Source: Magnetospirillum sp. 64-120 (GTDB lineage Bacteria > Pseudomonadota > Alphaproteobacteria > Rhodospirillales > Magnetospirillaceae). Taken from it: a stretch of 64,000 nucleotides of DNA. The stretch's first letter is position 1. Each line of letters starts with the position of its first letter. Of this stretch, positions 5,751-30,435 are shown in pieces. The position numbers and the translations under genes were made by a program. The stretch lies in the NCBI RefSeq assembly GCF_001898825.1, contig NZ_MKVK01000051.1; one strand, written 5' to 3'. The notes beneath the pieces are model-generated. The model was not told the DNA's origin. It did no database searches and saw only the letters and a list, made by a program, of their open reading frames with translations.

Positions 5751-7184
5751 ATGAATTCTCCGTCTTTCCCCCAGCCCCCCCGTTCCGGCGACCGCTCCAC
5801 TCGCCCGGTGGTGTGCATCCAAGGCCTGGGCTTCGTCGGCGCCGCCATGGCTGCCGCTGTCGCCATGGCCCGCACCCCCGACGGGGAACCGGCTTTCGAC
5901 GTCATCGGCGTCGACCTCCCCTCGGCCAAGGGCCGTGCCGCCATCGACGCCCTCAATGACGGGCGCTTCCCGTTCGAGACCCTGGACCCCAAGCTCGACG
6001 CCGCCATCGCCCAGGCCCGCGCCGTCGGCAACCTGTCGGCCACCGACGACGACAGTGTCTATGCCCATGCCGCGGTGGTCTGCGTCGATGTGCACCTTGA
6101 CGTGGTCCGCGATGACGACGGCAAGCCGGCCGCTGATCATTCCATCATCCGCAAGGCGGCCGAGATCCTGGGAGCGCGCATTCCTGCCGAATGTCTGGTG
6201 GTGGTCGAAACCACGGTGCCGCCGGGCACCTGCGACAAAGTGGTGCTGCCGGCGCTCCGCGACGGCTTCGCCGCTCGTGGGTTGGACCCCGATCAGGTGA
6301 TGCTGGCCCATTCCTACGAACGGGTGATGCCGGGCGAGAACTATCTGGATTCCATCGTCAATTTCTGGCGTGTCTTCGCCGCCAACGACGATCGTGCCGG
6401 CCGGGCCTGTGAAAAGTTCCTGTCCCAGGTCATCAACGTCAACCGGTTCCCGCTGACCCGGCTGGACCGCATCATCGCCTCGGAAACCGCCAAGGTTCTG
6501 GAAAACAGCTACCGCGCCACCACCATCGCTTTCATGGAGGAATGGGGCCGTTTCGCCGAGGCGGTGGGCATCGACATGTTCCAGATCGTCGATGCCATCC
6601 GTCAGCGGCCCACCCATTCCAACATGCGCACCCCCGGCTTCGGTGTGGGCGGGTATTGCCTGACCAAGGATCCGCTGTTGACCGCCATCGCCGCCCGTGA
6701 CCTGTTCGGGATCGAGCTGGATTTCCCGCTGTCGCGTCAGGCGGTAGAGATCAACGCCCGCATGCCGCTGGCCAGCCTGGACCTGTTGCAGGGACTGGTC
6801 GGTGACGTCGCCGGCAAGACCGTGCTGGTCTGCGGTGTCAGCTATCGCCCCGGCGTCGCCGACACCCGCTATGCCCCGGCGGAAATCCTGGTCCGCGAAC
6901 TGGAAAAGCGCGGCGCCAGCGTGTTGCTGACCGATCCACTGGTCGGCCACTGGGAAGAACTGGGCCGCAACGTTCCCCGATCCCCGCCGCCGGCGACGGG
7001 AGTCGACGGCGTGATCTTCGCCGTCGAGCATGGTCAATACCGCCAACTCGACGTGGCCGCTTGGTTGGGAACCGCCCGTCCGGCGGTGGTGGACGCGTCC
7101 AATGTTTTGACCGCCGCCCAGCGGCAGGCTTTCAAGCAAGCCGGATGTCGCGTCGCCGGCATCGGCAGGGGAGAACACAGTTGA
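5751..7184 (+). CDS. Nucleotide-sugar dehydrogenase (WecC/Cap5O-like, UDP-glucose/GDP-mannose dehydrogenase family)
   Basis: The tracked 610-aa ORF (from 5352) carries an implausible Arg/Pro-rich leader that covers the divergent intergenic region. Family-like sequence starts at the in-frame ATG 5751 (MNSPSF...VVCIQGLGFVGAAMA). Catalytic motif GVGGYCLTKDP. The stop overlaps the next start (TTGA at 7181-7184). Confidence 0.85.
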   Translation: MNSPSFPQPPRSGDRSTRPVVCIQGLGFVGAAMAAAVAMARTPDGEPAFDVIGVDLPSAKGRAAIDALNDGRFPFETLDPKLDAAIAQARAVGNLSATDDDSVYAHAAVVCVDVHLDVVRDDDGKPAADHSIIRKAAEILGARIPAECLVVVETTVPPGTCDKVVLPALRDGFAARGLDPDQVMLAHSYERVMPGENYLDSIVNFWRVFAANDDRAGRACEKFLSQVINVNRFPLTRLDRIIASETAKVLENSYRATTIAFMEEWGRFAEAVGIDMFQIVDAIRQRPTHSNMRTPGFGVGGYCLTKDPLLTAIAARDLFGIELDFPLSRQAVEINARMPLASLDLLQGLVGDVAGKTVLVCGVSYRPGVADTRYAPAEILVRELEKRGASVLLTDPLVGHWEELGRNVPRSPPPATGVDGVIFAVEHGQYRQLDVAAWLGTARPAVVDASNVLTAAQRQAFKQAGCRVAGIGRGEHS

Positions 7185-8173
7185 GCAAGGTCCTGATCAC
7201 CGGCGGCGCCGGCTTCATCGGTTTCCATCTGGCCACGGCGCTGGTCGCCGATGGTCATGCCGTCGACCTGCTTGACGACTTTTCCCGCGGTGTCGGCGAC
7301 GCCGAACTGAAGGCGTTGCTGGATCGCCCGTCGGTTCGCTGCCTGACCGTGGATCTGCGCGATCACGACAAGGTGGTGGCGCTGGATGACGATTACGACC
7401 ACATCTACCACCTGGCCGCCATCATCGGTGTCGCCCATGTGATGAGCCGTCCTTACGCGGTCCTGGCCGACAACGTGGCCATGCTGGCCAACGTCATCGA
7501 GTTGGCCCGCCGCCAAAAGCATCTGGCGCGTCTGCTGTTCACCTCGACCAGCGAGGTGATGGTGGGATCGCTGCAGCATCTGGACCTGCCGGTGCCAACG
7601 CCGGAAACCGCCGTGGTCGCCCTGCCCGACCTGGCCCATCCGCGCACCAGCTACATGCTGTCGAAGCTTTACGGCGAGGCCATGTGCCTGCAGTCTGGCC
7701 TGCCCGTCACCATCATCCGCCCACACAATTTCTATGGGCCGCGCATGGGCATGAGCCACGTGGTCCCCGAATTGCTGGCCAAGGCCCATGCCCTGCCGGC
7801 GGGCGGCGTGCTGCCGGTGGCCTCGGTCGAGCATCGCCGGGCGTTTTGCTATATCGACGACGCCGTCACCCTAATGCGGGCGTTGATGGACAAGCCAGCC
7901 GGCTTGGGCGGCGTCTTCAACATCGGCAACCAGGACCAGGAAATCAGCATCGGCGACTTGGCCCAGGTGCTGATCGACACCGTCGGCAAGGGCCTGTCCA
8001 TCCAGGCCGGGGAAGTGCACCCCGGATCGCCCAGCCGCCGTTGCCCCGACATGACCAAGACGGTGGCCGCCACCGGTTTGTCTCCGGTGGTCTCGCTGCA
8101 AGACGGCGTCGCCCGCACCTATGCCTGGTACCGGGCCAATGTCTTCGACGGAAAGGGACCCAGCGCCAAATGA
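7181..8173 (+). CDS. Extended-SDR NDP-sugar 4,6-dehydratase/epimerase (LegB/PseB-position enzyme)
   Basis: TTG start at 7181, in frame with tracked ORF 7061-8173, gives (M)SKVLITGGAGFIGFHLATAL. Motifs STSEV and YMLSK (YxxxK) are present. It lies directly upstream of, and overlapping, the aminotransferase (ATGA at 8170). Confidence 0.8.
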   Translation: MSKVLITGGAGFIGFHLATALVADGHAVDLLDDFSRGVGDAELKALLDRPSVRCLTVDLRDHDKVVALDDDYDHIYHLAAIIGVAHVMSRPYAVLADNVAMLANVIELARRQKHLARLLFTSTSEVMVGSLQHLDLPVPTPETAVVALPDLAHPRTSYMLSKLYGEAMCLQSGLPVTIIRPHNFYGPRMGMSHVVPELLAKAHALPAGGVLPVASVEHRRAFCYIDDAVTLMRALMDKPAGLGGVFNIGNQDQEISIGDLAQVLIDTVGKGLSIQAGEVHPGSPSRRCPDMTKTVAATGLSPVVSLQDGVARTYAWYRANVFDGKGPSAK

Positions 8174-9321
8174 TCCCCTTGGCCGTCCCCGACCTGTCGG
8201 GCAACGAAGCCCGCTATTTGCAGGAATGCGTCACCAGCACCTTCGTGTCGTCGGTGGGGCCGTTCGTCGATCGTTTCGAGACCATGGTCGCCCAGGCCGC
8301 CGGCGCCACCGGAGCCGTCGCCTGCGCCTCGGGCACCAGCGCGCTGCACGCCGCCTTGCTGGCGGTGGGGGTCGGACGCGACGATCTGGTCATCCTGCCC
8401 AGCTTCACCTTCATCGCCAGCGCCAACGCCGTTGCCCATTGCGGCGCCACGCCTTGGTTGTTCGACGTCGACGCGGCCAGCTGGACCCTGGACCCGGCTT
8501 TGGTCGCCGCCGAACTGGCCGCCCACTGCCACCGTGACGGCGACCGGGTGATCCACGGGCCGAGCGGACGCCGGGTCGCCGCCATGGTGCCCGTCCACGT
8601 CCTGGGCATGCCCGCCGACATGGACCCGCTGATCGAAGTGGCCCGCGCGTGGGGACTGAAAGTGGTGGCCGACGGCGCCGCCGCCCTTGGTGCAGCCTAC
8701 AAGGGCCGCCCCATCGGTCAACTGGGCGCCGATTTGACCATGGTGTCCTTCAACGGCAACAAGACGGTGACCGCCGGCGGCGGCGGCGCGGTGATCGGCA
8801 ACGACGCCGACCTGCTGAAGCTGGTCCGCCACCTGACCACCACCGCCCGGGTCGGCGCCGATTACGATCACGACCGCGTCGGCTATAACTACCGCATGAC
8901 CAATCTGCAGGCCGCCGTCGGCTGCGCCCAAATGGAACGGCTGGATCAATTGGTGGCGGCGAAGCGCCGTATCGCCGCCGGTTACGACGACGCCTTGGCC
9001 GACATCAAGGGAATCGGCCGTTTCCCGGTGCCCGATTACGCGCTTTCAGCCTGCTGGTTCTCGGGGGCCATCGTGCAGCCGCCCCTGCCGTCAGTGGCGG
9101 AAATCCGCCCCCGCTTGCGCCAGGCCGGCATCGACGCCCGTCCGTTCTGGAAACCCATGCATCTGCAGGCACCCTTCGCTGCCGCGCCGCGCACCAAGCA
9201 GGACGTGGCCGACGCGGTGTGGCCGACGGTGCTGACCCTGCCCTGTTCGACCCATCTGAGCGACGCCGAGCAAGCCCAGGTGATCGCCGCCTTGCGCTCG
9301 ATACTGGAAAATGCCCCATGA
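8170..9321 (+). CDS. DegT/DnrJ/EryC1-family PLP aminotransferase (LegC/PseC-like)
   Basis: In-frame ATG at 8170 gives MIPLAVPDLSGNEARYLQECV... Motifs ASGTSALHAALLA, VILPSFTFIASANA and the PLP-lysine region SFNGNKTVTAGGGG. The tracked 545-aa version (from 7684) is an overextension into the upstream gene. Confidence 0.9.
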   Translation: MIPLAVPDLSGNEARYLQECVTSTFVSSVGPFVDRFETMVAQAAGATGAVACASGTSALHAALLAVGVGRDDLVILPSFTFIASANAVAHCGATPWLFDVDAASWTLDPALVAAELAAHCHRDGDRVIHGPSGRRVAAMVPVHVLGMPADMDPLIEVARAWGLKVVADGAAALGAAYKGRPIGQLGADLTMVSFNGNKTVTAGGGGAVIGNDADLLKLVRHLTTTARVGADYDHDRVGYNYRMTNLQAAVGCAQMERLDQLVAAKRRIAAGYDDALADIKGIGRFPVPDYALSACWFSGAIVQPPLPSVAEIRPRLRQAGIDARPFWKPMHLQAPFAAAPRTKQDVADAVWPTVLTLPCSTHLSDAEQAQVIAALRSILENAP

Positions 9322-10499
9322 GCCGTCGCCGCATCTGCATCACCACCGGTTCCCGCGCCGAATATGGCCATATGCAATGGCTTGCCCGTGACATCGCCGA
9401 CGACACGGAGCTGGAACTGCAATTCATGGTCCTGGGCATGCATATGGCCCCCCAATACGGCATGACGGTGCGCGAGATCGAAGCGGACGGCTTTTTCGTC
9501 AACGAAAAGGTGGAAACCGCCCTGGCTTCGGACAGCCCGGTCTCCATCGCCAAGTCCATGGGCTTGGCGGTGTCCGGTTGTGCCGAGGCCTTGGCCCGGC
9601 TCCGCCCGGATGTCCTGGTGATCCTGGGCGACCGCTATGAAATGGTTTCGGCGGCGCTGGCGGCGTTGGTGCTGCGCATCCCCATCGCCCACATCCATGG
9701 CGGCGAAACCACCGAAGGGGCCTTCGACGAAGCGTTGCGCCATTCCATCACCAAGATGGCTCATTTGCACTTCACCGCCGCCGAGCCCTATCGCCGCCGT
9801 GTGATCCAATTGGGCGAGGCGCCCGAACGGGTGTTCAATTTCGGCGGTCCCGGTCTGGATACCTTGTTGCGCCAGAAGCTGATGACCATCCAGGAGCTGT
9901 CCGCCAGCACCGGTTTCGACCTGGACGGCGGTCCGTTGCTGTTGGTCACCTATCACCCCGTCACCTTGGCCGGCGGTGATCCTGCCGGAGGTATCGGCGC
10001 CCTGGTTGATGCCCTTGAGCGTTTCCCCGACACCCGCATCCTGATCACCGGGGTCAACGCCGACACCGGCAACAGCCGTATCACCACGGCCTTTCAAGCC
10101 CTGCGCCTGCGCCATCCGGCCAGAGTCTTCATGATCGACAGCCTGGGCCATCACCGTTATATCAGCGCCATGAGCCATGCTGCCGCCATGGTCGGCAATT
10201 CCTCGTCGGGCATCGGCGAGGCGCCGGCGTTGGGCCTGCCCACCGTCAATATCGGCGACCGTCAGAAAGGCCGCCTGCGAGCAGAGTCGATCATCGATTG
10301 TGCCGAAGACGCCGACGCCATCGCCACGGCATTGACCCAAGCGCTCAGCCCTGATTTCCGCCAAACCGCCCGTTCCTGTGAAGCCCCTTATGGTCGTGGC
10401 GGCGCCTCCTCGCGTATCAAAGACGTGCTGAAGACGGCTTCCTTGGACGGTATCTTGATGAAATCCTTTCACGATCTAGCGCCGGAGGTCATCCGGTGA
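9318..10499 (+). CDS. neuC: UDP/GDP-N-acetylglucosamine-type 2-epimerase (hydrolysing), NeuC/LegG family
   Basis: MSRRRICITTGSRAEYGHMQWL..., GDRYEMVSAALAA, IAHIHGGETTEGAFDE, VGNSSSGIGEAPALGLPTVNIGDRQKGR. ATGA overlap at 9318 and GTGA overlap at 10496. Confidence 0.9.
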   Translation: MSRRRICITTGSRAEYGHMQWLARDIADDTELELQFMVLGMHMAPQYGMTVREIEADGFFVNEKVETALASDSPVSIAKSMGLAVSGCAEALARLRPDVLVILGDRYEMVSAALAALVLRIPIAHIHGGETTEGAFDEALRHSITKMAHLHFTAAEPYRRRVIQLGEAPERVFNFGGPGLDTLLRQKLMTIQELSASTGFDLDGGPLLLVTYHPVTLAGGDPAGGIGALVDALERFPDTRILITGVNADTGNSRITTAFQALRLRHPARVFMIDSLGHHRYISAMSHAAAMVGNSSSGIGEAPALGLPTVNIGDRQKGRLRAESIIDCAEDADAIATALTQALSPDFRQTARSCEAPYGRGGASSRIKDVLKTASLDGILMKSFHDLAPEVIR

Positions 10500-11587
10500 A
10501 GGACTGGGCCAAAACCCTGGTCGCTCCCGAGACCACGATTCTGTCAGTGGTCCATGGCATCAACGAAGCCGATCTTCAGGTCGCACTGGTGGTGGACGAC
10601 CAGCGGCGATTGCTGGGCATCGTCACCGACGGCGACATTCGCCGCGCCATTCTCCGGCAGGTTTCTTTCGACAAACCGGTCAGCGAGATCATGAACCCGG
10701 CGCCCATCACCTGCCCGGCCGGTGAAAGCCGTGAACGGGTGCAGGCGACAATGACGGCCGCATCCTTGCGTTTCCTTCCGATGGTCGATGCCGAAGGCCG
10801 GGTCGTTTCCGTCTGTACCCTCGAAAATTTGCTGGCCTCGCCGCAACGGTCGAACACCGTGGTGTTAATGGCCGGCGGCATGGGTACCCGGCTGCGCCCG
10901 TTGACCAACGACATTCCCAAGCCGTTGTTGCGGGTAGGTGGCAAGCCGCTGCTGGAAATCATATTGGAAGGGTTCATCGCCCAGGGATTCCACAATTTTT
11001 ATCTGGCGGTCAATTACAAGGCCCAGATGATCAAGGACTACTTCCAGGATGGCGGCGCTTTCGGTGTTTCAATCCGCTACCTCGAGGAAAATCAGCGCCT
11101 GGGCACCTGCGGCGCCCTGACCTTGTTGCCCGAACGCCCGACCGAGTCGTTGATCGTGATGAATGGCGATCTGCTAACCACCGTAGATTTCGGCACCCTC
11201 TTGGACTTTCATGACGAGCACGGTGCGGTCGCCACCATGGCCGTTCGCGAATACGATTTCCAGGTTCCCTATGGTGTGGTGGAAACCGACGGTCATCGCA
11301 TCCTCAGGCTCGAAGAAAAACCGATACAACGTTTTTTCGTCAACGCTGGCATTTACGCCCTGTCGCCGCAAGTTCTGGATCGACTGGTGCCCGACCGTTA
11401 CATGGACATCACCGAATTGTTCCAGAACCTGTTGGACGACAACCACGAAACGGCCATGTTCCCCATACGCGAATACTGGCTGGACATCGGCCGTGTGGAC
11501 GATTTCGAACGGGCCAATCAGGAAGTCCACGACATCCTGGCTACCTCTCGTCGCCCCCAGGCTCAGAACGGCGGTGGGGAATGGTGA
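10496..11587 (+). CDS. CBS-pair + sugar-1-phosphate nucleotidyltransferase (PtmE-like)
   Basis: 363 aa. The N-terminal CBS pair includes LLGIVTDGDIRRAIL. It is followed by the NTP-transferase motif VVLMAGGMGTRLRPLTNDIPKPLL. This architecture matches the guanylyltransferase of the Campylobacter legionaminic acid locus. Confidence 0.85.
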   Translation: MKDWAKTLVAPETTILSVVHGINEADLQVALVVDDQRRLLGIVTDGDIRRAILRQVSFDKPVSEIMNPAPITCPAGESRERVQATMTAASLRFLPMVDAEGRVVSVCTLENLLASPQRSNTVVLMAGGMGTRLRPLTNDIPKPLLRVGGKPLLEIILEGFIAQGFHNFYLAVNYKAQMIKDYFQDGGAFGVSIRYLEENQRLGTCGALTLLPERPTESLIVMNGDLLTTVDFGTLLDFHDEHGAVATMAVREYDFQVPYGVVETDGHRILRLEEKPIQRFFVNAGIYALSPQVLDRLVPDRYMDITELFQNLLDDNHETAMFPIREYWLDIGRVDDFERANQEVHDILATSRRPQAQNGGGEW

Positions 11588-11627: not shown

Positions 11628-12695
11628 ATGGTGCCGATGATCTTCTCCGTGGTCAGCCCCGACGATCCCGCCTGGACCGACGCCTTCATGCGCCTTAGTC
11701 CGACTGATCGTGATGTTTTTCACTCTCCGGCTTTCGCCCGGGCCACCCAGGCCACCTTGTACCGCCGCGACACCGTCCTGGCGGCCATCGGCGCGAAGGG
11801 TGAACAAAGGGTGCTGTACCCCTTTGTGCTGCGTGACCTTGAACGACTGACCGGTGCATGCGCGGCCCGGGGCTTGACCGACATGACCGGCCTTTACGGG
11901 CGCGGTGGCATCGCGCTGAGCTTGGATGGCGCCTCGCTGTTGCCGTCCTTTCATTCGGCCCTGAACGAATGGGCCCAAGGTGCCGGGGCCATCTGCACCT
12001 TTGATCGCTTCCACCCCGTCAGCGCCAACGAAGTCACGATAGCCCCGGGTGGGCGGGTCATCGATGTGGGGCTATTCGTGGTGATGGATTTGCGCGACGG
12101 TGCCGACGCCGCGCTGGCCCGCGCCAAGCCGGCCATCCGTCGGGCCATCCGCCGGGCCGAAAGCCTGGGCATCACCACCCGTCAGGTTCCCGCCGCGCAA
12201 GCCATCGATCCGTTCTTGGACCTTTATCACGAGACCATGGCCGCCAACGGCGCCGAGGATTTCTATTTCTTCGACCGCAGCTTTTTCCAAAGCCTGGCCG
12301 ACGCCTTGGGTGAAGGCGCCCAGTTTCATTTCGCCTTTGATGGCGACCAGCCGGTTTCCGCCGAACTTGTGCTGGCTGAAGGACGTTATTGCCATTACTT
12401 CCTAGGCGGCACCCGTCGCCAGGCCCTGGACAGCCGCGCCAACCAAAAGCTAAAATCCCACATCGTCGCCGATTGCGCCGCCCAGGGCCGGCACTTCTAT
12501 CTACTGGGCGGCGGCCACGACCCCGAGGATGGCTTAACCCGCTATAAACTGACCTTCGCCCCCGATGGCGGCTTACCGTCGAGGGTGGGCGGAACCATTT
12601 TCGATGCCGACGCCTACCAGAATCTGAAGGCGCGTTTGGCAGAAGACGGCACAGTCATCCGGCCCAACCGTTTCCAATTTTATGATCCGAACTAG
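11628..12695 (+). CDS. FemAB / Acetyltransf_6 (GNAT-fold) family acyl- or aminoacyl-transferase
   Basis: 355 aa. AIRRAIRRAESLGITTRQV..., YHETMAANGAEDFYFFDRSFF, AELVLAEGRYCHYFLGGT, LKSHIVADCAAQGRHFYLLGGG. This pattern is typical of FemAB-related GNAT proteins found in polysaccharide loci. Confidence 0.65.
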   Translation: MVPMIFSVVSPDDPAWTDAFMRLSPTDRDVFHSPAFARATQATLYRRDTVLAAIGAKGEQRVLYPFVLRDLERLTGACAARGLTDMTGLYGRGGIALSLDGASLLPSFHSALNEWAQGAGAICTFDRFHPVSANEVTIAPGGRVIDVGLFVVMDLRDGADAALARAKPAIRRAIRRAESLGITTRQVPAAQAIDPFLDLYHETMAANGAEDFYFFDRSFFQSLADALGEGAQFHFAFDGDQPVSAELVLAEGRYCHYFLGGTRRQALDSRANQKLKSHIVADCAAQGRHFYLLGGGHDPEDGLTRYKLTFAPDGGLPSRVGGTIFDADAYQNLKARLAEDGTVIRPNRFQFYDPN

Positions 12696-12704
12696 GGGGG
12701 AACC

Positions 12705-13397
12705 ATGGTTTCCGAAACCGCGATCGAGCAGAACCTGCGCCGCTGGGATGAACTGTTCCAGAGACGAAGCTGGGGCCGCTATCCCCCCGAGGAACTGATC
12801 CGATTCACGTCCCGCCGCTTCTCCCAGGTCGAGAACCGCCTTGCTGTTCGCATTCTCGAGATCGGGTGCGGCATGGGGGCCAATCTGTGGTTCTTCTCAC
12901 GTGAAGGCTTCTCGACCTATGGCATGGATTGTTCATCAACGGCCCTAGCCGAGGCTAAACGCCGGCTGGACGCCGAAAATCTGCCGATTGCAGAATTGGC
13001 GACCGGCAATTTCACCACTTTGCCCTGGCCTGACAACCATTTCGACATGGTCGCCGATATCGAGGCCGTGGTCGCTAACCCAACCGCCCAGGCACGGGCC
13101 ACCGTGGCCGAGGTGCTGCGGGTGCTACGCCCCGGCGGCGTGATGTTTTCCAAGCTGTTCGGGGTGCGGACCAATGGCTCCGGCACCGGCGAAATGGTTG
13201 AACCAGGCACCACCGCCAACCCCACCGAAGGCCCCTGCGCCGGTTTGGGCCTGACCCATTTCTATACCGAGGAAGACATCCGCGCCCTGTTCTCTGGCTT
13301 CGCCGAGGTTTCAGTGGACTACGTCGAACGTAGCGATGGCGGCGGTGCCGTACGTGTCCATGAGTGGGTGGTCGGCGCCACCAAGGCGACAGCATGA
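12705..13397 (+). CDS. Class I SAM-dependent methyltransferase
   Basis: 230 aa. Motif I is ILEIGCGMGANLWF, followed by DMVADIEAV and RPGGVMFSKLF. The stop overlaps the neuB-like start (ATGA at 13394). Confidence 0.85.
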   Translation: MVSETAIEQNLRRWDELFQRRSWGRYPPEELIRFTSRRFSQVENRLAVRILEIGCGMGANLWFFSREGFSTYGMDCSSTALAEAKRRLDAENLPIAELATGNFTTLPWPDNHFDMVADIEAVVANPTAQARATVAEVLRVLRPGGVMFSKLFGVRTNGSGTGEMVEPGTTANPTEGPCAGLGLTHFYTEEDIRALFSGFAEVSVDYVERSDGGGAVRVHEWVVGATKATA

Positions 13398-14449
13398 ACC
13401 GCGCCCTAACCGCCATCGCCAACCGGCCCATCGGGCCGGGGCACCCCTGTTTCGTCATCGCCGAGGCCGGAGTCAACCACAACGGCGACATGGACATGGC
13501 CTTGCGCCTGATCGACATCGCCGCCGATGCCGGCTGTGATGCCGTCAAGTTCCAGACCTTCATCACCGAAAAGGAAGTTTCTCCCTTCGCCCCCAAGGCC
13601 GATTACCAGATCGCCAACACCGGCGCCGACGAAAGCCAGTTGGAGATGCTCAAGGGCCTGGAACTGGACGAAGCGGCTCATCGGCGGCTGATGGAACATT
13701 GTGACCGTCGCGGCATCTTGTTCTTGTCCTCTCCCTTCGACATGGATTCGGTGGCGCTGCTGGGACGGCTTGAACTGGCCGCCATCAAGATTCCATCGGG
13801 CGAGATCACCAACATACCCTATCTACAGGCCATCGCCGCGCTGGGCCGTCCGATCATCCTGTCCACCGGCATGAGCACTTTGGCGGAAGTGGGTGAAGCA
13901 CTGGAACTTCTGCGTCGCGCCGGCGATCCCCCGGTGGCGCTCTTGCATTGCCTGTCGTGCTATCCCGCCGATCCGACCGAGGTCAATCTGCGGGCCATGG
14001 ATAGCATGGCCCACGCCTATCAAGTGACCGTCGGCTATTCCGACCACACTTTGGGAACCTCGGTGGCGGTCGCAGCGGTGGCGCGCGGCGCGGCCATCAT
14101 CGAAAAGCACATCACCCTGGATCACGACCTGCCAGGCCCGGACCATCGCGCCTCGCTGGAACCTGATGAATTGCAAAGCATGATGACGGCAATCCGGGTG
14201 GTCGAGCGCGCCTTGGGCGACGGTCTGAAACGGGTTCAGCCATCCGAGGCCAATACCCGCGATGTCGCCCGCAAAAGCGTGTGCACCAGCCGCGTCATCG
14301 CTGCCGGCCAGACCCTGCGCGACGACGATCTGATCATGCTGCGTCCCGGCACCGGCTTTCCCGCCCGCGACCTGCCCTTGTTGACGGGACGTCGATCCCG
14401 ACGCGACCTCCCTGCCGGATGGCCACTGACCGCCGAAGACTTGGAGTAG
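13394..14449 (+). CDS. neuB: Nonulosonic acid synthase, NeuB/LegI family (PEP-dependent), with C-terminal SAF domain
   Basis: In-frame ATG 13394 gives MNRALTAIANRPIGPGHPCFVIAEAGVNHNGDMDMALRLIDIAADAGCDAVKFQTF. Further motifs are IILSTGMSTLAEV, LLHCLSCYPADPTEVNLRAM, VGYSDHTLG, IIEKHITLD and the SAF-like tail RKSVCTSRVIAAGQTL. Confidence 0.92.
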   Translation: MNRALTAIANRPIGPGHPCFVIAEAGVNHNGDMDMALRLIDIAADAGCDAVKFQTFITEKEVSPFAPKADYQIANTGADESQLEMLKGLELDEAAHRRLMEHCDRRGILFLSSPFDMDSVALLGRLELAAIKIPSGEITNIPYLQAIAALGRPIILSTGMSTLAEVGEALELLRRAGDPPVALLHCLSCYPADPTEVNLRAMDSMAHAYQVTVGYSDHTLGTSVAVAAVARGAAIIEKHITLDHDLPGPDHRASLEPDELQSMMTAIRVVERALGDGLKRVQPSEANTRDVARKSVCTSRVIAAGQTLRDDDLIMLRPGTGFPARDLPLLTGRRSRRDLPAGWPLTAEDLE

Positions 14450-14455
14450 ACGTTA

Positions 14456-15661
14456 ATGCCGGGCCATGCTCTGATCTTGGTCAAAAACGCCATCAGCCCG
14501 CATGACCTGGAACGTCGGGGGATTAATGCGCTGACCGCCATGGGGTTCAGCGTCAACGTTCTCGATCTGGGCAATTTGCTGTCCCCCCAGATACAGCATA
14601 ACCGCAGTCATTATTCCAGCTTGGGGATTCCGATCACGGTGATTTCAAGCTGGCGGACCCTGCATCGGGCCTGGCCACTGTTTCAGCAGGCCGACCTGGC
14701 TTTTTGCTTTATCGCCACTCACCACATGCGCGCGGTAGATATTCCGCTATTTCGTCTTCTTGGACGCAGCCGTACGCCATACGTATTATTCATGAACAAT
14801 ACAGTGCCTGGAATTCTGCCCCATGAATGGCACCAGGGATGGTGGGGGCGCATGCGCGAACGGCTGAACAGGCTTAGGACGATTCGTCCACTGGACACCC
14901 TGGCCTCGCGCATTGCACCGGGCTGGGTCGGCGCGCCTCAAGCTGCCGCCGTGGTTTATGGTGGCGTGTCTTCCGTGGCTCCCAGCCAATTGGTCGGTCC
15001 CGACACCTTGCGCATCAATGCACACACCAACGATTACGACAGCTTGCGCACCCTGCGCGGCCAGCCGCTGGAAGACGACCACAGCGCCGTGTTCATCGAT
15101 CAGTACCTTCCTTTCCACCCTGATTGGGTGGAAAGGCCGGGCACCAACCGCATCGATCCTGATTCCTATTACACCAGCCTGCGTCGCCTGTTCGATCGCA
15201 TCGAGGCCGAATTGGGGCTAAGGGTCGTGATCGCCGCCCATCCCCGCGCCAATTACGCCGACAAGCCCGGCCTGTTCGGTGACCGTCTGGTTGCCAGCGG
15301 ACAAACCACCGAGTTGATACGCCGCAGTTCCCTGGTCATCGGCCATTACAGCTTGGCACTGGGGCAGGCGGTGATCTTCCACAAGCCGGTTCTATTGTTG
15401 CGTAGCGCCAGCTTTGGCGCCTCTTTGCTTTTGCTTGACCATATCACCGAGGCTTATGCCCGCGCATTGGGCACACAGCTAGAGAACATGGACACACCGC
15501 AAGCCATCCCACTGGCCGATCACACCAGCCCCAATGAACAAGCCTATGCTGGCTTTATCCACCAGTGGGTCAAACAGACGGGTAGCCCGGAAGCGCCTTT
15601 GCACGACATCGTCATCGCGGCGATGAGGCGGGCCGGACTGATCCCGGATCAGACGAAGTAA
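14456..15661 (+). CDS. Uncharacterised 401-aa protein; possible GT-B-like (capsule-synthesis / glycerophosphotransferase-like) sugar transferase
   Basis: No recognisable signature. The C-terminal half has VVIAAHPRANY...LVIGHYSLALGQAVIFHKPVLLL. This loosely resembles the HP...S/T-x-x-x-x-A...P pattern of KpsS/TagF-like GT-B proteins. The gene starts 7 nt after the neuB stop. GC is visibly lower than in the upstream operon. Confidence 0.6.
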   Translation: MPGHALILVKNAISPHDLERRGINALTAMGFSVNVLDLGNLLSPQIQHNRSHYSSLGIPITVISSWRTLHRAWPLFQQADLAFCFIATHHMRAVDIPLFRLLGRSRTPYVLFMNNTVPGILPHEWHQGWWGRMRERLNRLRTIRPLDTLASRIAPGWVGAPQAAAVVYGGVSSVAPSQLVGPDTLRINAHTNDYDSLRTLRGQPLEDDHSAVFIDQYLPFHPDWVERPGTNRIDPDSYYTSLRRLFDRIEAELGLRVVIAAHPRANYADKPGLFGDRLVASGQTTELIRRSSLVIGHYSLALGQAVIFHKPVLLLRSASFGASLLLLDHITEAYARALGTQLENMDTPQAIPLADHTSPNEQAYAGFIHQWVKQTGSPEAPLHDIVIAAMRRAGLIPDQTK

Positions 15662-16521
15662 CCGTATTTTTCCATCGGCAGACCATAAAGTTTTTGCAGC
15701 TTTCGGTTTCCGTATTCGTAGTCCCTTAGGACCTTGGCGGCGAATTCAGGCGACAAATCCATTCGCCGCCGCAATGCCTTGGCCGCCAGATCGGCCATCC
15801 CAAGCTTGCGCACCAGCGGTTTGAGGAACCCCAAAGACTGGGGATAGCGCGTCGCCTCGGCATGCGACTCGTTTACTTTTTTCTGGCTTTGGGCGAAGTG
15901 CCGCAGATCTTCACCCATGATGTCGCCAAGGCGCCGGAAATAGGTTTCCGGGTCGTCGCTTAATTCCTCAAGCAGCAATACATCAACCCGATCGGGACCC
16001 AAACGCTCGACAATGCGGAAAAAGTCCAGGGTCTCGAAATATATCATCCCGACCCGCTTGCGCAGTTTTACAGCGCCGGAACCCAAATTTTGAGCAGGAT
16101 AGTCAATAAAAATATCTTCGGGCCGATAAATGAAAGATGGCGCATTATGTTGAAAAATGCTTTGGACCATCAAATCTTGGCGCCGGATTTGCAAAAGAAA
16201 TCGGCCCTCTGTTTCAAATATGCGCCGCAAATTAGTCAAACAATTATGACGATGACTGTATTCAGTGAAGCGAATTTCAGGAGACATGACATAGTCGGAC
16301 AGCCCCTCATGGCTAAAGCAATATCGCTCGCCACGCTTTTGGAAAAAAACCAGATCCTGCGGTAGGTCGTCGAAGCTGTTTTTGGCCAGGATGTCCTCGG
16401 TGCCGTTATCCGCGACATAGGGCATGTTCTGGAGTTTGGGGAAAACGCGTTCCTGAAGAAACGTCGATCCGCATTTGGGTAAACCGATATGGATCACCGG
16501 ACCCCTATTCACACAGGACAT
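15649..16521 (-). CDS. Sulfotransferase-family protein (PAPS-dependent)
   Basis: 290 aa. The 5'-PSB-like motif is IHIGLPKCGSTFLQ and the 3'-PB-like motif is LLQIRRQDLMVQS. A GGAGAG SD lies 6 nt upstream of the ATG. The gene is markedly AT-rich (22/60 GC at 16081-16140). Confidence 0.75.
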   Translation of the reverse strand: MSCVNRGPVIHIGLPKCGSTFLQERVFPKLQNMPYVADNGTEDILAKNSFDDLPQDLVFFQKRGERYCFSHEGLSDYVMSPEIRFTEYSHRHNCLTNLRRIFETEGRFLLQIRRQDLMVQSIFQHNAPSFIYRPEDIFIDYPAQNLGSGAVKLRKRVGMIYFETLDFFRIVERLGPDRVDVLLLEELSDDPETYFRRLGDIMGEDLRHFAQSQKKVNESHAEATRYPQSLGFLKPLVRKLGMADLAAKALRRRMDLSPEFAAKVLRDYEYGNRKLQKLYGLPMEKYGYFV

Positions 16522-16622
16522 CTGAACTCTCCATATTGCCTAGTGGTCCGATCCTGACAGGAGGCTCATGGGCATGAACCTTCTGTCAGGCGAATCGGCC
16601 CACGAAATCAACGAATTATGCA

Positions 16623-16664
16623 CCAATCCATTCAGATGGTCTGTGTACCATCTGAATGGATTGG
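16623..16664. repeat. Perfect 18-bp inverted repeat (stem-loop) in the GT-C / sulfotransferase spacer
   Basis: ccaatccattcagatggt (16623-16640), 6-nt loop ctgtgt, accatctgaatggattgg (16647-16664). It extends to 22 bp with one mismatch. Flanking weaker hairpins are cctgacag/ctgtcagg (16553-16590) and cttgctt/aagcaag (16688-16708). Confidence 0.8.
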
Positions 16665-16800
16665 CGCACTAGTGGCCTGAGACGAAACTTGCTTTACAGC
16701 GAAGCAAGCAATGGCTTCAGCAGATTTTGGAATTGCAGCAACCATCCAACCAGGGCCAGAACCGCCCAAGACAAAGCCAACGCCACCCATTTTTTCCCGG

Positions 16801-25871: not shown

Positions 25872-26010
25872 CTGAATTCCTTGAGGTTGCCGGTCCTTTA
25901 TGCTAATCACCGCACGCGTTGGTGACGGGAGTACGAATGGCTGGGAACGTCTTAAAGTCGGCTCGCAACGCGCTCGTTTTCATCGTGGAAATCGACGGAA
26001 ATCACCTTGG
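25872..26010 (+). repeat. Direct repeat copy B, containing a 37-codon neuB-like 5' remnant ORF (25937-26050)
   Basis: The remnant reads MAGNVLKSARNALVFIVEIDGNHLGDFGQVRRDHHHP*. Copy A reads MAGNVFTSVRNAVFFIVEIGGNHEGDF. The remnant stops 4 nt before the acetyltransferase ATG at 26055. Confidence 0.8.
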
Positions 26011-26054
26011 CGATTTCGGACAAGTTCGCCGTGACCATCACCACCCCTGATTCC

Positions 26055-26609
26055 ATGAAACTCCAAAGCGGTGTCCGCAAATACGCACCGTTCACCTTGG
26101 GGCACGCATTGCGCCGCTGGTGGACCTTGCGTGGTATCGGTGCGCGGGGAGACCGGGTCTATGTGGACAGGAATGTCCAACTGATGCGTCACCCGGAAAA
26201 GATCGCCCTCGGCAACAACGTGATGCTCAAGGAAGGGGTGCGGCTGTGCCCGACCAACCCTGACGCCTCCATCATTGTCGGCGACTGGACCACGCTGGGC
26301 TACCACTGCTTCCTGTTTGCCAGCACCCGTATCGAAATCGGCGCCAACTGCCTGATTGCGCCGTTCTGCTACTTCGTCGATTCCGACCACGGCATCGCCG
26401 CTGATAGCTTAATTCGCGAGCAAGACATGAACGCACGTCCCATTCGCATCGGTTCCGACGTGTGGCTGGGCACCGGCGTGGTCGTGACCAAAGGTGTTAC
26501 CATTGGCGATGGCGCTGTCATCGGCGCCCGCTCGGTGGTGACCGAGGACGTGGCCGCCGGTGCAGTAGTCGCCGGCGTTCCAGCCCGGTTCATCCGGTAC
26601 CGCCAATGA
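26055..26609 (+). CDS. Hexapeptide-repeat (LbH) acetyltransferase, WbbJ/LacA/WcaF-like
   Basis: In-frame ATG 26055 gives MKLQSG... Left-handed beta-helix repeats are IGANCLIAPFCYFVDSDHG, IRIGSDVWLGTGVVVTKGVTIGDGAVIGARSVV and AGAVVAGVPARFI. The tracked start (TTG 26007) lies inside the neuB-like repeat. Confidence 0.8.
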   Translation: MKLQSGVRKYAPFTLGHALRRWWTLRGIGARGDRVYVDRNVQLMRHPEKIALGNNVMLKEGVRLCPTNPDASIIVGDWTTLGYHCFLFASTRIEIGANCLIAPFCYFVDSDHGIAADSLIREQDMNARPIRIGSDVWLGTGVVVTKGVTIGDGAVIGARSVVTEDVAAGAVVAGVPARFIRYRQ

Positions 26610-27295
26610 AAATCGGCGCCGTGATCTTGGCCCGACTGGATTCCCGCCGCCTGCCCGGCAAGGCGCTGATCCAGGTTGCCGGCCGTCCACTGCTTGGCCA
26701 TGTCATCGACATCTGTCGGCACGTCGTCGGCCTGGACGCCATTGCCCTGGCCACCTCTGATCGCCCCGAAGACGATGTATTGGAAACCTTCGCTCACGCC
26801 GAAGGCATCGCTTGCGTGCGCGGGTCATTGGATGATGTGGCGGGCCGCTTCCTCACCGCCATGCGCCAGTTAAATCTAGACGGAGCATTGCGGCTGAACG
26901 GCGACAGCCCGCTCAACCGCCCTGCCCTACTTAGCCAGGCGGTCGAACGATTCCGACGAGGCGGATGGGATTTGGTGACCAACGTGGTCGGCCGCAGCTA
27001 TCCGTTTGGCGTCAGCGCCGAAGTCATTGGCTACGCGGCGATGGAACGGGCCTGTACGGCGATGCATATCCCCGAGCACCGTGAGCACGTCACCAAGGTG
27101 TTCTATGACAATCCCGAGCAGGTACGTATGGATGTGCTGCTCAATGTCGAACCGGGCATGAACGGAGTGCAGCTGGCTGTGGACGACCAAACCGACTTGG
27201 AGCGTTTCCGCTGGATTGCCGCCCGCCGACCCGATTTCATCACGGCGCCGTTGTCTGATCTGGTCGCCCTGGCCCGCACCTTCGAAATCGAGTAG
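26606..27295 (+). CDS. Cytidylyltransferase-family protein (SpsF/PseF-like)
   Basis: ATGA overlap at 26606 gives MKIGAVILARLDSRRLPGKALIQVAGRPLLGHVIDI... (the A-x-x-x-AR-x-x-S-x-RLPGK signature of SpsF-like nucleotidyltransferases). 229 aa. Confidence 0.8.
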   Translation: MKIGAVILARLDSRRLPGKALIQVAGRPLLGHVIDICRHVVGLDAIALATSDRPEDDVLETFAHAEGIACVRGSLDDVAGRFLTAMRQLNLDGALRLNGDSPLNRPALLSQAVERFRRGGWDLVTNVVGRSYPFGVSAEVIGYAAMERACTAMHIPEHREHVTKVFYDNPEQVRMDVLLNVEPGMNGVQLAVDDQTDLERFRWIAARRPDFITAPLSDLVALARTFEIE

Positions 27296-27299
27296 ACAA

Positions 27300-28688
27300 A
27301 TGTCCGCCAATCCCCTGGTTACCGTCTACATCACCAATTACAATTACGGTCGCTATCTGCGCCAAGCGGTGGACAGCGTTCTGGCCCAGCAATTCACCGA
27401 CTACGAGCTGATCATCGTCGACGACGGTTCGACCGATAATTCCAGCGACATCATCCGCGAATACGAAGGCCGTCCTGGTATCAGGATCATCTTGCAGAAC
27501 AACAAAGGCCTGAACGCCACCAATAATATTTGTGTTCGCGCGGCCCGCGGCAAATACATCATGCGCCTGGATGCCGACGATTTCCTTGATGAAAATGCCC
27601 TGTTGATCATGGCCAACCTCTTGGAAGCCGAACCCAAATTGGCCCTGGTGTTTCCCGACTGGTACTATGTCGATGCTGAAGGCCAGATAACCGGCCAAGA
27701 ACGACGCAACAATTTCCAGAGCGAGGTCACCTTACTGGATCAGCCGGCTCATGGCGCCTGCACCATGATCCGACGCGAATGCCTGCTCGAGGTCGGCGCT
27801 TACAGCTCGGGCTTCCGTTGCCAAGACGGCTACGACCTGTGGCTGAAGATCATCGACCGCTATCCCGTACGCAACATCAACCTGCCACTGTTTTATTATC
27901 GTCGGCACGGCAACAACCTGACGGAGAAGAACGAGTTAATCCTGAAGACCCGTTCGGAAATCCTCAAGGCCCACGCCGACCGGGTCAACCGCCCCGAACT
28001 GGCCACTTTGGCGGTTTTGCCCGTGCGCGGCCCCAGCATCGATCCAAAATGCTTGTCACGCGCGACACTGGACGGTCTCCCGTTGATCGACTGGACCATT
28101 GCCAGCGCTCTGGAAGCTGAAACCCTGGGCGGTCTGGTCGTCTCGTCACCCGATCAGGCATTGTTGGAGGCGGTCGCCGCCACCTGGGGCGAGCGGGTAA
28201 TCTTGCACCATCGTTCCCGCGATCAGGCGCTGGAGAACGTTTCCTATAGCCAGACGATTTTGGAAGCCATGGAAATGGCTACTTTCAGCCCGGATGCCCT
28301 GCTGCTACTCAACGTCGAGTATCCGCTACGGACCTCGTTCTATCTAGACAAGGCGGTCAACGTCATGCGGGTGTTCGACGACATCGACCTAGTCCTTGGC
28401 GTACTACCCGAGGACGACCTGTTCTTCCAGCACGCCGGCAGCGGCTTGCGCCCGGTGGGCACGAATTCCATGCTGACCAAGATGCGGTTCGAACGCGACT
28501 ACCTATACCGCCATGCCGGCGGTGCCGTCCTGGCGCGGGCATCCTTCTATCGCCAAACCCGAGGTGACCTGACCCGGGCTCGGATTGGTCATTACGTCCT
28601 TAGCCGTAAAGCTGCCACGGCAGTTCGCAATCCTCTTGATCTCGCCATTGCCGAAGCGGTCCTGGCAACGACACGGCAGGAAACATGA
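27300..28688 (+). CDS. Fusion protein: N-terminal GT2 glycosyltransferase + C-terminal CMP-NeuAc-synthetase-like (CTP_transf_3-like) domain
   Basis: In-frame ATG 27300. The GT2 part has VTVYITNYNYGRYLRQAVDSVLAQQFTDYELIIVDDGSTDNS and the RLDADD (DxD) motif. From about residue 250 it reads LAVLPVRGPSIDPKCLSRATLDGLPLIDWTIASALEA...LLLLNVEYPLRT..., which follows the NeuA-like layout but lacks the canonical R-GGSKG loop. Confidence 0.75.
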   Translation: MSANPLVTVYITNYNYGRYLRQAVDSVLAQQFTDYELIIVDDGSTDNSSDIIREYEGRPGIRIILQNNKGLNATNNICVRAARGKYIMRLDADDFLDENALLIMANLLEAEPKLALVFPDWYYVDAEGQITGQERRNNFQSEVTLLDQPAHGACTMIRRECLLEVGAYSSGFRCQDGYDLWLKIIDRYPVRNINLPLFYYRRHGNNLTEKNELILKTRSEILKAHADRVNRPELATLAVLPVRGPSIDPKCLSRATLDGLPLIDWTIASALEAETLGGLVVSSPDQALLEAVAATWGERVILHHRSRDQALENVSYSQTILEAMEMATFSPDALLLLNVEYPLRTSFYLDKAVNVMRVFDDIDLVLGVLPEDDLFFQHAGSGLRPVGTNSMLTKMRFERDYLYRHAGGAVLARASFYRQTRGDLTRARIGHYVLSRKAATAVRNPLDLAIAEAVLATTRQET

Positions 28689-29521
28689 GTACCGTGGTCC
28701 AATCCCATTTCACCTGTCCCCCCTGCCCCTTGTGTCTAAGTGCGTCGCAGGAATTAATCGCCGTCTACGACCATCTGGGCCCAGGGGAAAAAGATCTCAA
28801 GGTTGGCAGCTATTATCGTGAGTTGTGGCGTTGCCCGGTATGCGGCCACCTGCGCAATTTACACGACCACGACCTGGACAGCCTGTACCAGGGAGGCTAC
28901 AACGCCGCCGCCTTCACCGATGGCCTAAAACGGCAGTTCGAGCGTGTGATGTCCTTGCCCAGGGAGCAATCGGACAATTGGAAGCGGGTCGACCGTATCC
29001 TTGATTACCTGGGTGCACCCGGTGACCGCACCGCCCTGGATATCGGTTCGGGTTCGGCGGTATTTCCGGCGGCCATGCGCCAAGTCGGTTGGAACATCAG
29101 CGCCATGGATCCCGACACGGCCGCAGTCGCCCATGCTAAAAGCGCCGCTGGCGTTGATGCTTTTGTCGGCGACGCCATGACCAGCAGCTTTCCCAGCCGC
29201 TATGACTTGATCACCTTCAACAAGGTGCTTGAACACATCAAACATCCCGTCAAGGCGCTGACACGGGCCAAGGCGGCTCTGAAGCCTGGTGGCTGGCTTT
29301 ATGTCGAACTACCCGACGGCGAGGAAGCCCTGCATGACGGCCTTCATCGCCAAGAATTCTTCCTTGAACACTGGCATGCCTTCAGTGTTCCCTCCATCGC
29401 GCTGCTGGCCCGGCGCGCCGGCCTACGGGCGGAAAGTATCGGCCGCACCCGCTGTCCCTCGGGTAAGTATACCTTGCACGCCTTCATGATCGAACGAACG
29501 GATTATAGCCCAAATGAATGA
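28685..29521 (+). CDS. SAM-dependent methyltransferase with N-terminal Cys-rich zinc-binding module
   Basis: 278 aa. CPPCPLC...CPVCGH at the N-terminus. Motif I is ALDIGSGSAVFPAAM, followed by FNKVLEHIKHP and KPGGWLYVELP. ATGA overlap at 28685. Confidence 0.85.
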   Translation: MSTVVQSHFTCPPCPLCLSASQELIAVYDHLGPGEKDLKVGSYYRELWRCPVCGHLRNLHDHDLDSLYQGGYNAAAFTDGLKRQFERVMSLPREQSDNWKRVDRILDYLGAPGDRTALDIGSGSAVFPAAMRQVGWNISAMDPDTAAVAHAKSAAGVDAFVGDAMTSSFPSRYDLITFNKVLEHIKHPVKALTRAKAALKPGGWLYVELPDGEEALHDGLHRQEFFLEHWHAFSVPSIALLARRAGLRAESIGRTRCPSGKYTLHAFMIERTDYSPNE

Positions 29522-30392: not shown

Positions 30393-30435
30393 GGATATGA
30401 ATTTTCCCATCCACGCCTGAATCGACGGCAAAACA

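Follow-up and report, generated by a model that had tools for sequence, protein, structure and literature searches.

A candidate N-aminoacyltransferase of FemX fold and a linked methyltransferase in a legionaminic acid-type operon of Magnetospirillum sp. 64-120

Organization of the operon

The window analyzed here is a stretch of 64,000 nucleotides from Magnetospirillum sp. 64-120 that spans positions 162456-226455 of contig C51 (NZ_MKVK01000051.1) in a genome of 4.27 Mb and 58 contigs. Between about 7.2 and 15.7 kb, it carries eight plus-strand genes with ends that overlap or almost abut. They include a translationally coupled operon in the order LegB-LegC-NeuC-PtmE-Fem-MT-NeuB, which resembles the clusters for legionaminic acid (Leg), a nonulosonic acid (NulO). 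Two of these genes, the putative transferase Fem and the methyltransferase MT, are the subject of this report. A first-pass annotation of the window had placed a FemAB/Acetyltransf_6 protein and an S-adenosylmethionine (SAM) methyltransferase between the nucleotidyltransferase and neuB, and its coordinates and domain calls proved exact. The genes of the region are as follows.

7181-8173, plus strand: LegB-like NAD-dependent 4,6-dehydratase of the short-chain dehydrogenase/reductase (SDR) type (Pfam Epimerase, 145 bits; best NCBIfam model LegB TIGR04180, 120.7 bits, under its cut-off)
8170-9321, plus strand: LegC-family aminotransferase (DegT_DnrJ_EryC1, 304.7 bits; TIGR04181, 397.6 bits, slightly below the cut-off of 420)
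9318-10499, plus strand: NeuC/LegG-type hydrolyzing 2-epimerase (TIGR03568 NeuC_NnaA, 449 bits against a cut-off of 235.9)
10496-11587, plus strand: PtmE-like protein with CBS and nucleotidyltransferase domains, the putative GDP-sugar entry point (Pfam NTP_transferase, 148.6 bits; CBS, 54.5 bits)
11628-12695, plus strand: Fem, a 355-residue tandem-GNAT (Gcn5-related N-acetyltransferase) transferase of FemX fold and proposed N-aminoacyltransferase in the LegH slot (Acetyltransf_6, FemAB)
12705-13397, plus strand: MT, a 230-residue class I SAM methyltransferase (Pfam Methyltransf_25, 66.2 bits against a cut-off of 27; Methyltransf_11, 58.4 bits)
13394-14449, plus strand: NeuB/LegI-type nonulosonate synthase (TIGR03569, 444.1 bits against a cut-off of 399.65)
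14456-15661, plus strand: 401-residue protein, a candidate transferase that begins 7 bases past neuB and lacks a Pfam or NCBIfam family match

The start of LegB was set at a TTG (7181) preceded by GGGGAG, in an open reading frame (ORF) that is open from 7061. The ATG of LegC (8170) overlaps the stop of LegB, that of NeuC (9318) overlaps the stop of LegC, and the NeuC/PtmE junction overlaps likewise. MT begins with an ATG 9 bases past the Fem stop, behind a Shine-Dalgarno-like run of GGGGG, and the ATG of neuB (13394) overlaps the MT stop as ATGA. Fem itself may start at ATG 11637, since its nearest database relative (99% identical) begins at residue 4. By its family assignment, the LegC aminotransferase is the predicted source of the 4-amino sugar that requires N-acylation. 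The PtmE-like gene type is also present in nearly all other Fem-bearing clusters, and weak homologues of the 401-residue protein lie downstream of the cluster in two comparison loci (L026 and L028).

Fem and the aminoacyl-tRNA-dependent transferases

GNAT-fold transferases that depend on aminoacyl-tRNA include FmhB, FemA, MurM, VlmA, PacB, DhpH-C, and Orf11/Sbb17. Fem scores 64.7 bits on Pfam Acetyltransf_6 (cut-off 22) and 38.1 bits on FemAB (cut-off 24). A single-sequence search of the Protein Data Bank (PDB) with Fem returned chance matches only (RecD, E 0.57). A profile of 40 homologues retrieved FemX of Weissella with an E-value of 1e-15, together with Staphylococcus aureus FmhB, the peptide synthases Sbb17/Sba18, and FemA; the remaining profile matches were two de novo designed proteins with non-significant E-values of 0.18 and 0.74.

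The AlphaFold2 model of Fem, built on the 40-homologue alignment, has a mean predicted local distance difference test score (pLDDT) of 96.6 and a predicted template modeling score (pTM) of 0.93. Foldseek ranks FemX first against this model (TM-score 0.72/0.76), followed by Sbb17/Sba18, FmhB, FemA, and the aminoacyl-phosphatidylglycerol synthase domains of MprF; with FemX, Sbb17/Sba18, FmhB, and FemA, the alignment covers all of Fem. The best 16 matches are all aminoacyl-tRNA-dependent enzymes, and two Sbb17/Sba18 structures among the matches were solved with the amino-sugar compound streptothrisamine. Acetyl-CoA-dependent tandem GNATs rank lower (2wpw and 2i00), the best of them, 2wpw, with a TM-score of about 0.5. 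As modeled, Fem shares with FemX a tandem-GNAT fold that lacks the coiled coil of FemA.

Residues K307, Y306, and D301 of Fem align with K305, F304, and D299 of FemX in the profile alignment. K307 and D301 are invariant among the 40 homologues, and position 306 is always aromatic. A lysine- and arginine-rich helix at residues 167-176 is kept in 16 orthologues and aligns with a similarly Lys/Arg-rich stretch of FemX. The equivalent aromatic-lysine pair of DhpH-C is F328-K329. K305 has been described as the sole reactive residue in the FemX active site, its DhpH-C equivalent Lys329 is essential, a basic helix on domain 2 is the proposed tRNA contact in these transferases, and Orf11/Sbb17 aminoacylates the amine of an amino sugar (PMC12945691).

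Fem thus resembles FemX of Weissella viridescens and the wider FemABX group in its tandem-GNAT fold, aromatic-lysine pair, and lack of a CoA motif, and its lysine- and arginine-rich helix, where domain 2 begins, is a candidate counterpart of the basic helix. It differs in sequence (16-17% identity) and in its predicted acceptor, which would be a GDP-linked 4-amino-6-deoxy sugar rather than a peptidoglycan precursor or an antibiotic intermediate. The first-pass annotation had left the choice between a FemX-like enzyme and a plain GNAT to profile and structure comparison, and both favor FemX, the former with the E-value of 1e-15 and the latter with TM-scores of 0.72/0.76 versus about 0.5. Judged by profile, model, and motifs, Fem belongs with FemX and not with the plain GNATs that use acetyl-CoA, and use of a tRNA is predicted.

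An alternative explanation is that Fem is an acyl-CoA-dependent GNAT, an analogue of LegH without its left-handed beta-helix (LbH), which places an acetyl or another CoA-borne acyl group (e.g., hydroxybutyryl) on N7, with MT acting elsewhere, for instance on a hydroxyl. PseH is a non-LbH counterpart of this sort in the pseudaminic acid pathway. The best Pfam match of Fem is named for an acetyltransferase (GNAT) domain, but the CoA-pyrophosphate motif [QR]xxGx[GA] is absent from all 355 residues in a regular-expression scan, and hence from either GNAT half. Tandem GNATs that bind acetyl-CoA do exist, as the lower-ranked matches 2wpw and 2i00 illustrate, and the function of the Fem subfamily is a prediction from sequence and model; yet among the relatives with a known function, the nearest ones all use aminoacyl-tRNA, whether sequence or structure is compared, and the homologue from Escherichia coli O161 (see below) goes with an alanyl rather than an acetyl group. 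A second, TylF-like gene of O-methyltransferase type in many related clusters also fits this alternative, but MT occurs only with Fem in the sampled loci, which would be unexpected if the sugar itself were methylated. On balance, an acyl-CoA-dependent Fem is improbable.

The canonical acetyltransferase and its absence from the window

In the established pathway, LegH (Cj1298), PglD, and NeuD catalyze the acetyl-CoA-dependent N-acetylation of the nucleotide-linked 4-amino-4,6-dideoxy-GlcNAc supplied by LegC. Fem is proposed to share this position, ahead of NeuC/LegG and NeuB/LegI. The canonical enzymes differ from it in fold, which is unrelated and joins a Rossmann-like PglD_N domain to an LbH, and in their chemistry, since they use acetyl-CoA as donor and leave an acetyl group. 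Fem contains neither a PglD_N Rossmann-like domain nor an LbH.

When the whole genome was scanned in six frames with TIGR03570, the model for NeuD/PglD/LegH, no full-length gene of PglD/LegH type turned up in the window, in agreement with the first-pass annotation. The model matches a single protein there, and of this only the C-terminal LbH half, over model positions 91-202 at 60.5 bits against a cut-off of 160.8:

26055-26609 (26007-26609 as scanned), plus strand: LbH acetyltransferase of WcaF/WbbJ/Maa/LacA type, listed for context

The best NCBIfam models for this protein are WcaF (85.9 bits), WbbJ (76.3), Maa (74.4), and LacA (73.3), consistent with its earlier description as the sole LbH protein of the window and a WbbJ/LacA-type O-acetyltransferase. 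As a hidden LegH, it was ruled out, because it lacks a PglD_N domain and O-acetyltransferase models match it best. A search for PseH-type GNATs (TIGR03585) gave three weak matches in the whole genome, none of them on contig C51.

A natural exchange in E. coli O161

The O antigen of E. coli O161 contains Leg5Ac7Ala, and a CMP-Leg5Ac7Ala pathway is listed in a review of E. coli O antigens, with genes named for Lea1 (dehydratase), Lea2 (aminotransferase), Lea3 ("alanyltransferase"), Lea4 (NeuB), Lea5 (NeuC), Lea6 (nucleotidyltransferase), and Lea7 (cytidylyltransferase) (PMC7685785). The alanyltransferase role of Lea3 is a proposal from 2010 (Li et al. 2010, as summarised in PMC7685785).

A weak DNA match to neuB led to the O161 locus in complete genomes of E. 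coli. In strain 22AR0750, the wzx and wzy genes of which are annotated as O161 family, a FemA/FemB-family gene directly follows the LegC-family aminotransferase in a cluster without an acetyltransferase, in the order dehydratase, LegC, FemA/FemB-family protein, neuB, neuC, nucleotidyltransferase, and cytidylyltransferase. Its backbone is shared by two further Leg clusters of E. coli, which instead have a 215-residue PglD_N+Hexapep acetyltransferase after neuB. TIGR03570 found the in-cluster gene on a control E. coli chromosome at 189 bits, which validates the acetyltransferase screen; on the O161 chromosome, the same scan detected no full-length PglD-type gene and only the shared housekeeping LbH proteins. 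The contrast shows a PglD-type enzyme naturally exchanged for one of Fem type, which goes with alanyl in place of acetyl on N7.

Lea3 and Fem align over their full length (22% identity, E 9e-19, 334 columns in BLASTP), and Lea3 scores 217 bits on the Fem hidden Markov model (HMM), compared with 27.7 bits for the other Acetyltransf_6 paralogue of the Magnetospirillum genome. A maximum-likelihood tree puts Fem in a core clade with good support (95/100); Lea3 is not part of that clade and groups loosely with more divergent MT-linked members. Both are Acetyltransf_6 proteins, Lea3 with 330 residues, and have in common the motifs YG(R/Y)GG, F(D/I)RFHP, LGGG...DGL..(Y/F)K, and FQ(F/L)Y. Each is also the only acyltransferase-type product of its Leg cluster, in which a PtmE-like nucleotidyltransferase is present and an acetyltransferase of PglD type is missing. 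The O161 cluster differs from the window operon in that it has no methyltransferase and encodes a 263-residue relative (L114:11338-12129) of the DegT-like protein described below.

Distribution of Fem in Leg-type clusters

Neighborhoods of Fem homologues were mapped by tblastn and an HMM built from the 40-sequence alignment. A word-indexed search had given only 10 Fem relatives, so that the family seemed rare; synteny mapping added many orthologues of 37-43% identity, and an exhaustive protein search returned 3329 relatives, 77 of them below an E-value of 1e-30. Fem lies in Leg-type clusters at 25 further loci, from Alpha-, Beta-, and Gammaproteobacteria, Elusimicrobiota, Planctomycetota, Chloroflexota, Thermodesulfobacteriota, Bdellovibrionota, and Bacillota. 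The close orthologues (37-44% identity) are found in such clusters on metagenome contigs and metagenome-assembled genomes (MAGs) of Alpha-, Beta-, and Gammaproteobacteria and Elusimicrobiota, where the usual order is LegB, LegC, NeuC, a divergent DegT-like protein, NeuB, Fem, MT, a TylF-like second methyltransferase, a PtmE-like protein, and a cytidylyltransferase. In a class-level sample of 400 other genomes, four match Fem at E <=1e-30 and none has a close orthologue, indicating a patchy occurrence in Alphaproteobacteria.

LbH ORFs occur in two of 26 Fem loci, and neither is of PglD type. Whole-genome scans of ten other genomes with both Fem and MT found no full-length TIGR03570 match in eight; the match in Ferrigenium is 144 kb away, and that in a Polaromonas MAG is directly beside the cluster. 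These counts support the earlier claim that Fem sits in the LegH slot, as does O161, where the FemA/FemB-family gene is found in place of the PglD-type acetyltransferase of its sister E. coli clusters. The comparative data suggest a rule by which Leg clusters hold either a PglD-type acetyltransferase or a Fem-type enzyme, the latter often with a dedicated methyltransferase.

Fused proteins offer a further view of the family. The relative P0112 is a PglD_N+Hexapep+Acetyltransf_6 fusion of 937 residues, and clusters in the ESM Atlas include DegT+FemAB and formyltransferase+Fem-fold fusions, which tie the Fem family to amino-sugar amines and to amine-capping enzymes. A separate search for longer, fused Fem relatives found none, which is weak evidence. 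Among other Fem relatives (P0024, P0044, P0048, and P0085; 626-1060 residues), several carry two Fem-type modules in tandem.

The Magnetospirillum genome has further Acetyltransf_6 genes at C51:151751-152143, which lies about 10.7 kb ahead of the window, and at C27:54730-55140. The former belongs to a different subfamily, given its score of only 27.7 bits on the NulO-Fem HMM. The P0013 contig, which carries a Leg cluster with Fem and MT, also encodes DUF2172/DUF4910 and Formyl_trans_C proteins and a second FemAB beside a second DegT and an asparagine-synthase-like gene (581-1858 and 19033-21020). The glycan made there may, given this second FemAB, hold more than one aminoacylated amino sugar.

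A divergent DegT-like protein of pyridoxal phosphate (PLP)-dependent fold, approximately 330-375 residues long, lies beside NeuB-Fem in most other clusters (L024:5726-6850, L025:5762-6877, L026:7788-8906, L027:7812-8930, L028:7853-8902, and L032:7801-8910). A chain of weak similarity links it to the 263-residue protein of O161 and to ORFs of unassigned family that adjoin Fem in L011, L021, L040, and L043. It is missing from the window operon, and the window contains only a weak look-alike ORF at 43024-44679 (about 43.6-44.7 kb; 29% identity over 146 residues). The DegT-like protein might be involved in the Fem route. At another locus, a 105-residue ORF (L022:12560-12877) and an AMP-binding, adenylate-forming enzyme (L022:12920-14398) are located two and three genes downstream of Fem, which makes an acyl or aminoacyl donor borne on a carrier protein possible in some lineages.

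These neighbors bear on the identity of the donor. Fem could transfer an amino acid, possibly a D-amino acid, to the LegC product from an aminoacyl-carrier protein or another activated form rather than from tRNA. The adenylating enzyme and 105-residue protein of L022, the DegT-like PLP protein beside Fem in many clusters, and the O161 alanine, which is D-alanine, all fit such a donor. Next to Fem in the window operon, however, there is no adenylating enzyme, carrier protein, or PLP partner, and Fem keeps the aromatic-lysine motif of FemX and a basic helix that may correspond to the one FemX uses for tRNA. For Magnetospirillum, a non-tRNA donor is accordingly a distinctly unlikely alternative to aminoacyl-tRNA.

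The methyltransferase partner

MT is modeled by AlphaFold2 with a pLDDT of 89.8, and its top Foldseek matches are all class I methyltransferases. Sequence and fold searches of the PDB return generic class I methyltransferases only, the best being the uncharacterized 2p8j. The glycine-rich SAM motif LE.GCG.G.N is invariant among MT orthologues, which have 34-52% identity and are located in Leg clusters.

Thirteen full-length MT orthologues were found in species-representative genomes. All ten of the orthologue loci with sufficient flank have a Fem-family ORF in the same Leg cluster, including those in the complete genomes of Brevibacillus fortis and Ca. Ferrigenium straubiae. The pair recurs in Leg-type clusters of many phyla, and so does not reflect chance juxtaposition. 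Fem occurs without MT in L011, L020, L022, and E. coli O161; MT without Fem was never seen in the loci sampled. This asymmetry fits an optional tailoring of what Fem installs.

On the chromosome of Brevibacillus fortis, a cultured species of Bacillota, the Leg cluster is complete and holds a tandem duplication of MT (L042:6001-6642 and 6698-7339) next to a divergent Fem, which scores 187 bits. In many clusters, MT is followed by the second, TylF-like methyltransferase (Pfam TylF, E 7e-5), which is 72-75% identical between distant taxa (L023:1344-2111, L024:9696-10466, L025:9656-10498, L026:11798-12559, L027:11950-12690, and L032:11828-12592). The window has no TylF-like gene, and a weak homologue at C43:35100-35651 lies immediately upstream of a NeuB paralogue on that contig.

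Methylated N-acyl groups have precedent in the Leg family. In FGI-II of Clostridium botulinum, the N-methyl group of Leg5GluNMe7Ac is attributed to a PtmH-like methyltransferase with a gene next to legI, and Campylobacter jejuni and Campylobacter coli make Leg5AmNMe7Ac by a route involving PtmG and PtmH (PMC13317340). These routes resemble the window operon in having a methyltransferase gene by legI/neuB, to which methylation of the nitrogen of a non-acetyl N-acyl group is ascribed. They differ in that the acyl group sits on N5 and is put there either by an amidino synthase or, once an acetyl group has been removed, by an ATP-grasp 'CarB', with no Fem-type enzyme. No Campylobacter or Clostridium locus appears among the best 80 MT relatives in species-representative genomes, in a scan that relies on exact peptide patterns.

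A proposed route and its alternatives

The operon can be arranged into a hypothetical pathway. The PtmE-like enzyme would make GDP-GlcNAc, which LegB would dehydrate and LegC would aminate at C4 to give GDP-4-amino-4,6-dideoxy-GlcNAc. Fem would then place an amino acid, most likely from aminoacyl-tRNA, on the 4-amine (N7 of the finished sugar) by means of Tyr306-Lys307, which corresponds to Phe304-Lys305 of Weissella FemX. NeuC and NeuB would accept the modified sugar and build the nine-carbon acid Leg5Ac7(aminoacyl). At some stage, MT would, as the simplest option, N-methylate the free alpha-amine of the new residue. The predicted product, Leg5Ac7(N-methyl-aminoacyl), would be CMP-activated by one of the cytidylyltransferases of the window and then transferred. 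Two candidates for CMP activation are encoded:

26606-27295, plus strand: cytidylyltransferase CTP_transf_3 (Pfam, 68.9 bits)
32833-33516, plus strand: PseF/NeuA-like cytidylyltransferase (TIGR03584 PseF, 145.4 bits, under its cut-off)

The second surpasses the first in tblastn against the cytidylyltransferase gene of other Fem clusters. The GC content is 0.52-0.57 in parts of the region from 16000 to 32000, compared with about 0.65 in its flanks, which fits a mosaic, horizontally acquired glycan region.

Taken as a whole, the view that the FemX-fold protein, rather than a LegH/PglD enzyme, N-acylates the 4-amino intermediate with an amino acid that MT then tailors stands at about an even chance of being right. 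Its parts are not equally firm. The LegC product is quite likely to be the acceptor of Fem, and it is fairly probable that the transferred group is an amino acid. For aminoacyl-tRNA as the donor, the case is evenly balanced. Methylation of the aminoacyl amine by MT is a tentative proposal that falls somewhat short of that, because the relatives and fold of MT are generic. The finished sugar probably carries a methylated amino acid. The first-pass annotation had predicted a non-acetyl, possibly methylated N-substituent, for example aminoacyl or hydroxyacyl, and of these, a hydroxyacyl group is the less likely.

Several observations weigh against this proposal. The window contains no tRNA gene, which rules out a dedicated tRNA nearby but is neutral as to tRNA as the donor, and its ORFs scanned against Pfam and NCBIfam include no aminoacyl-tRNA synthetase paralogue. 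The literature yielded no assay of any NulO-associated Fem member, Lea3 included. Neither the fold nor the sequence relatives of MT tell whether the methylated atom is N or O. Most of the comparison genomes are MAGs of unknown completeness, so that the absence of PglD from the host genomes is provisional. With the D-alanine of O161, an L-aminoacyl-tRNA donor would be insufficient without an extra epimerization step. The Fem+MT cluster of the Polaromonas MAG is adjoined by a PglD-like gene, which, together with the PglD-Fem fusions, suggests that the two enzymes cooperate rather than substitute for each other in some lineages. Finally, two full-length PglD-like genes lie on other contigs of the Magnetospirillum genome and may help in trans. 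One (C43:46679-47275; 178 bits, over the cut-off) is approximately 10 kb from a second NeuB paralogue, along with radical-SAM, cytidylyltransferase, RmlA-like, and SDR genes; the other (C26:69372-69977; 143 bits) is grouped with an ABC exporter, a GDSL esterase, a methyltransferase, and an SDR.

A PglD/LegH enzyme serving the pathway from elsewhere in the genome had been named in the first-pass annotation as contrary to its prediction, and the possibility is partly live, in that the two genes are full length. Either could N-acetylate the intermediate, with Fem and MT decorating another amine or acting later in the pathway, for instance on CMP-Leg or on the glycan once assembled. The Polaromonas neighbor and the PglD_N+Hexapep+Acetyltransf_6 fusions are in keeping with such a division of labor. 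Both Magnetospirillum genes, however, are part of separate glycan clusters, and no such gene is present in eight of the ten other Fem+MT genomes or on the complete O161 chromosome. Among the ORFs of the window scanned against Pfam and NCBIfam from 1 to 34.5 kb, there is no deacetylase to free a second amine, and the DegT+FemAB fusions place Fem directly after the aminotransferase. N-acetylation in trans thus has a small probability, and N-aminoacylation of the LegC product by Fem is preferred.

Further NeuB paralogues are encoded at C43:36059-37066 (40% identity), C52:28315-29361 (38%), and C26:2215-2907 (29%). The C43 copy is in an open frame that also matches AP_endonuc_2, a xylose-isomerase-like TIM barrel, and its neighbors include radical-SAM/SPASM, cytidylyltransferase, PhyH, HAD, RmlA-like, SDR, and PglD-like genes. 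This region looks like a second, different ulosonic-acid cluster.

Implications for nonulosonic acid biosynthesis

A Fem-type enzyme in the LegH slot is already known as a proposal, made for O161 in 2010. In a literature search that combined FemAB/FemX or aminoacyl-tRNA with legionaminic, pseudaminic, or nonulosonic acid, no paper was found that places such an enzyme in a NulO pathway, and the sole published hint found is the proposed role of Lea3. Specific to the window are the tight translational coupling of Fem, MT, and NeuB and the lack of a PLP partner. Further points are an MT family that is strictly linked to Fem in the sampled loci, and a positive and a negative control in complete E. 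coli chromosomes. Overall, the interpretation in the first-pass annotation is supported in all of its checkable parts; which donor and which amino acid are used, and where the methyl group goes, are predictions.

NulOs decorate flagella, lipopolysaccharides, and capsules, where their N-acyl groups set charge, serotype, and recognition by phages or hosts. If a FemX-type enzyme acts on a nucleotide sugar, the range of tRNA-dependent, non-ribosomal aminoacylation would come to include the precursors of surface glycans. It is possible, if rather doubtful, that Fem and MT form a module of two genes, found in many phyla, for the synthesis of a class of Leg not yet described, with an N-methylated, tRNA-derived amino acid on N7. 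In that case, environmental bacteria would routinely draw on charged tRNA to tailor nucleotide sugars, beyond its uses in peptidoglycan, lipids, and a few antibiotics, and a free or methylated amine would render the surface sugar zwitterionic.

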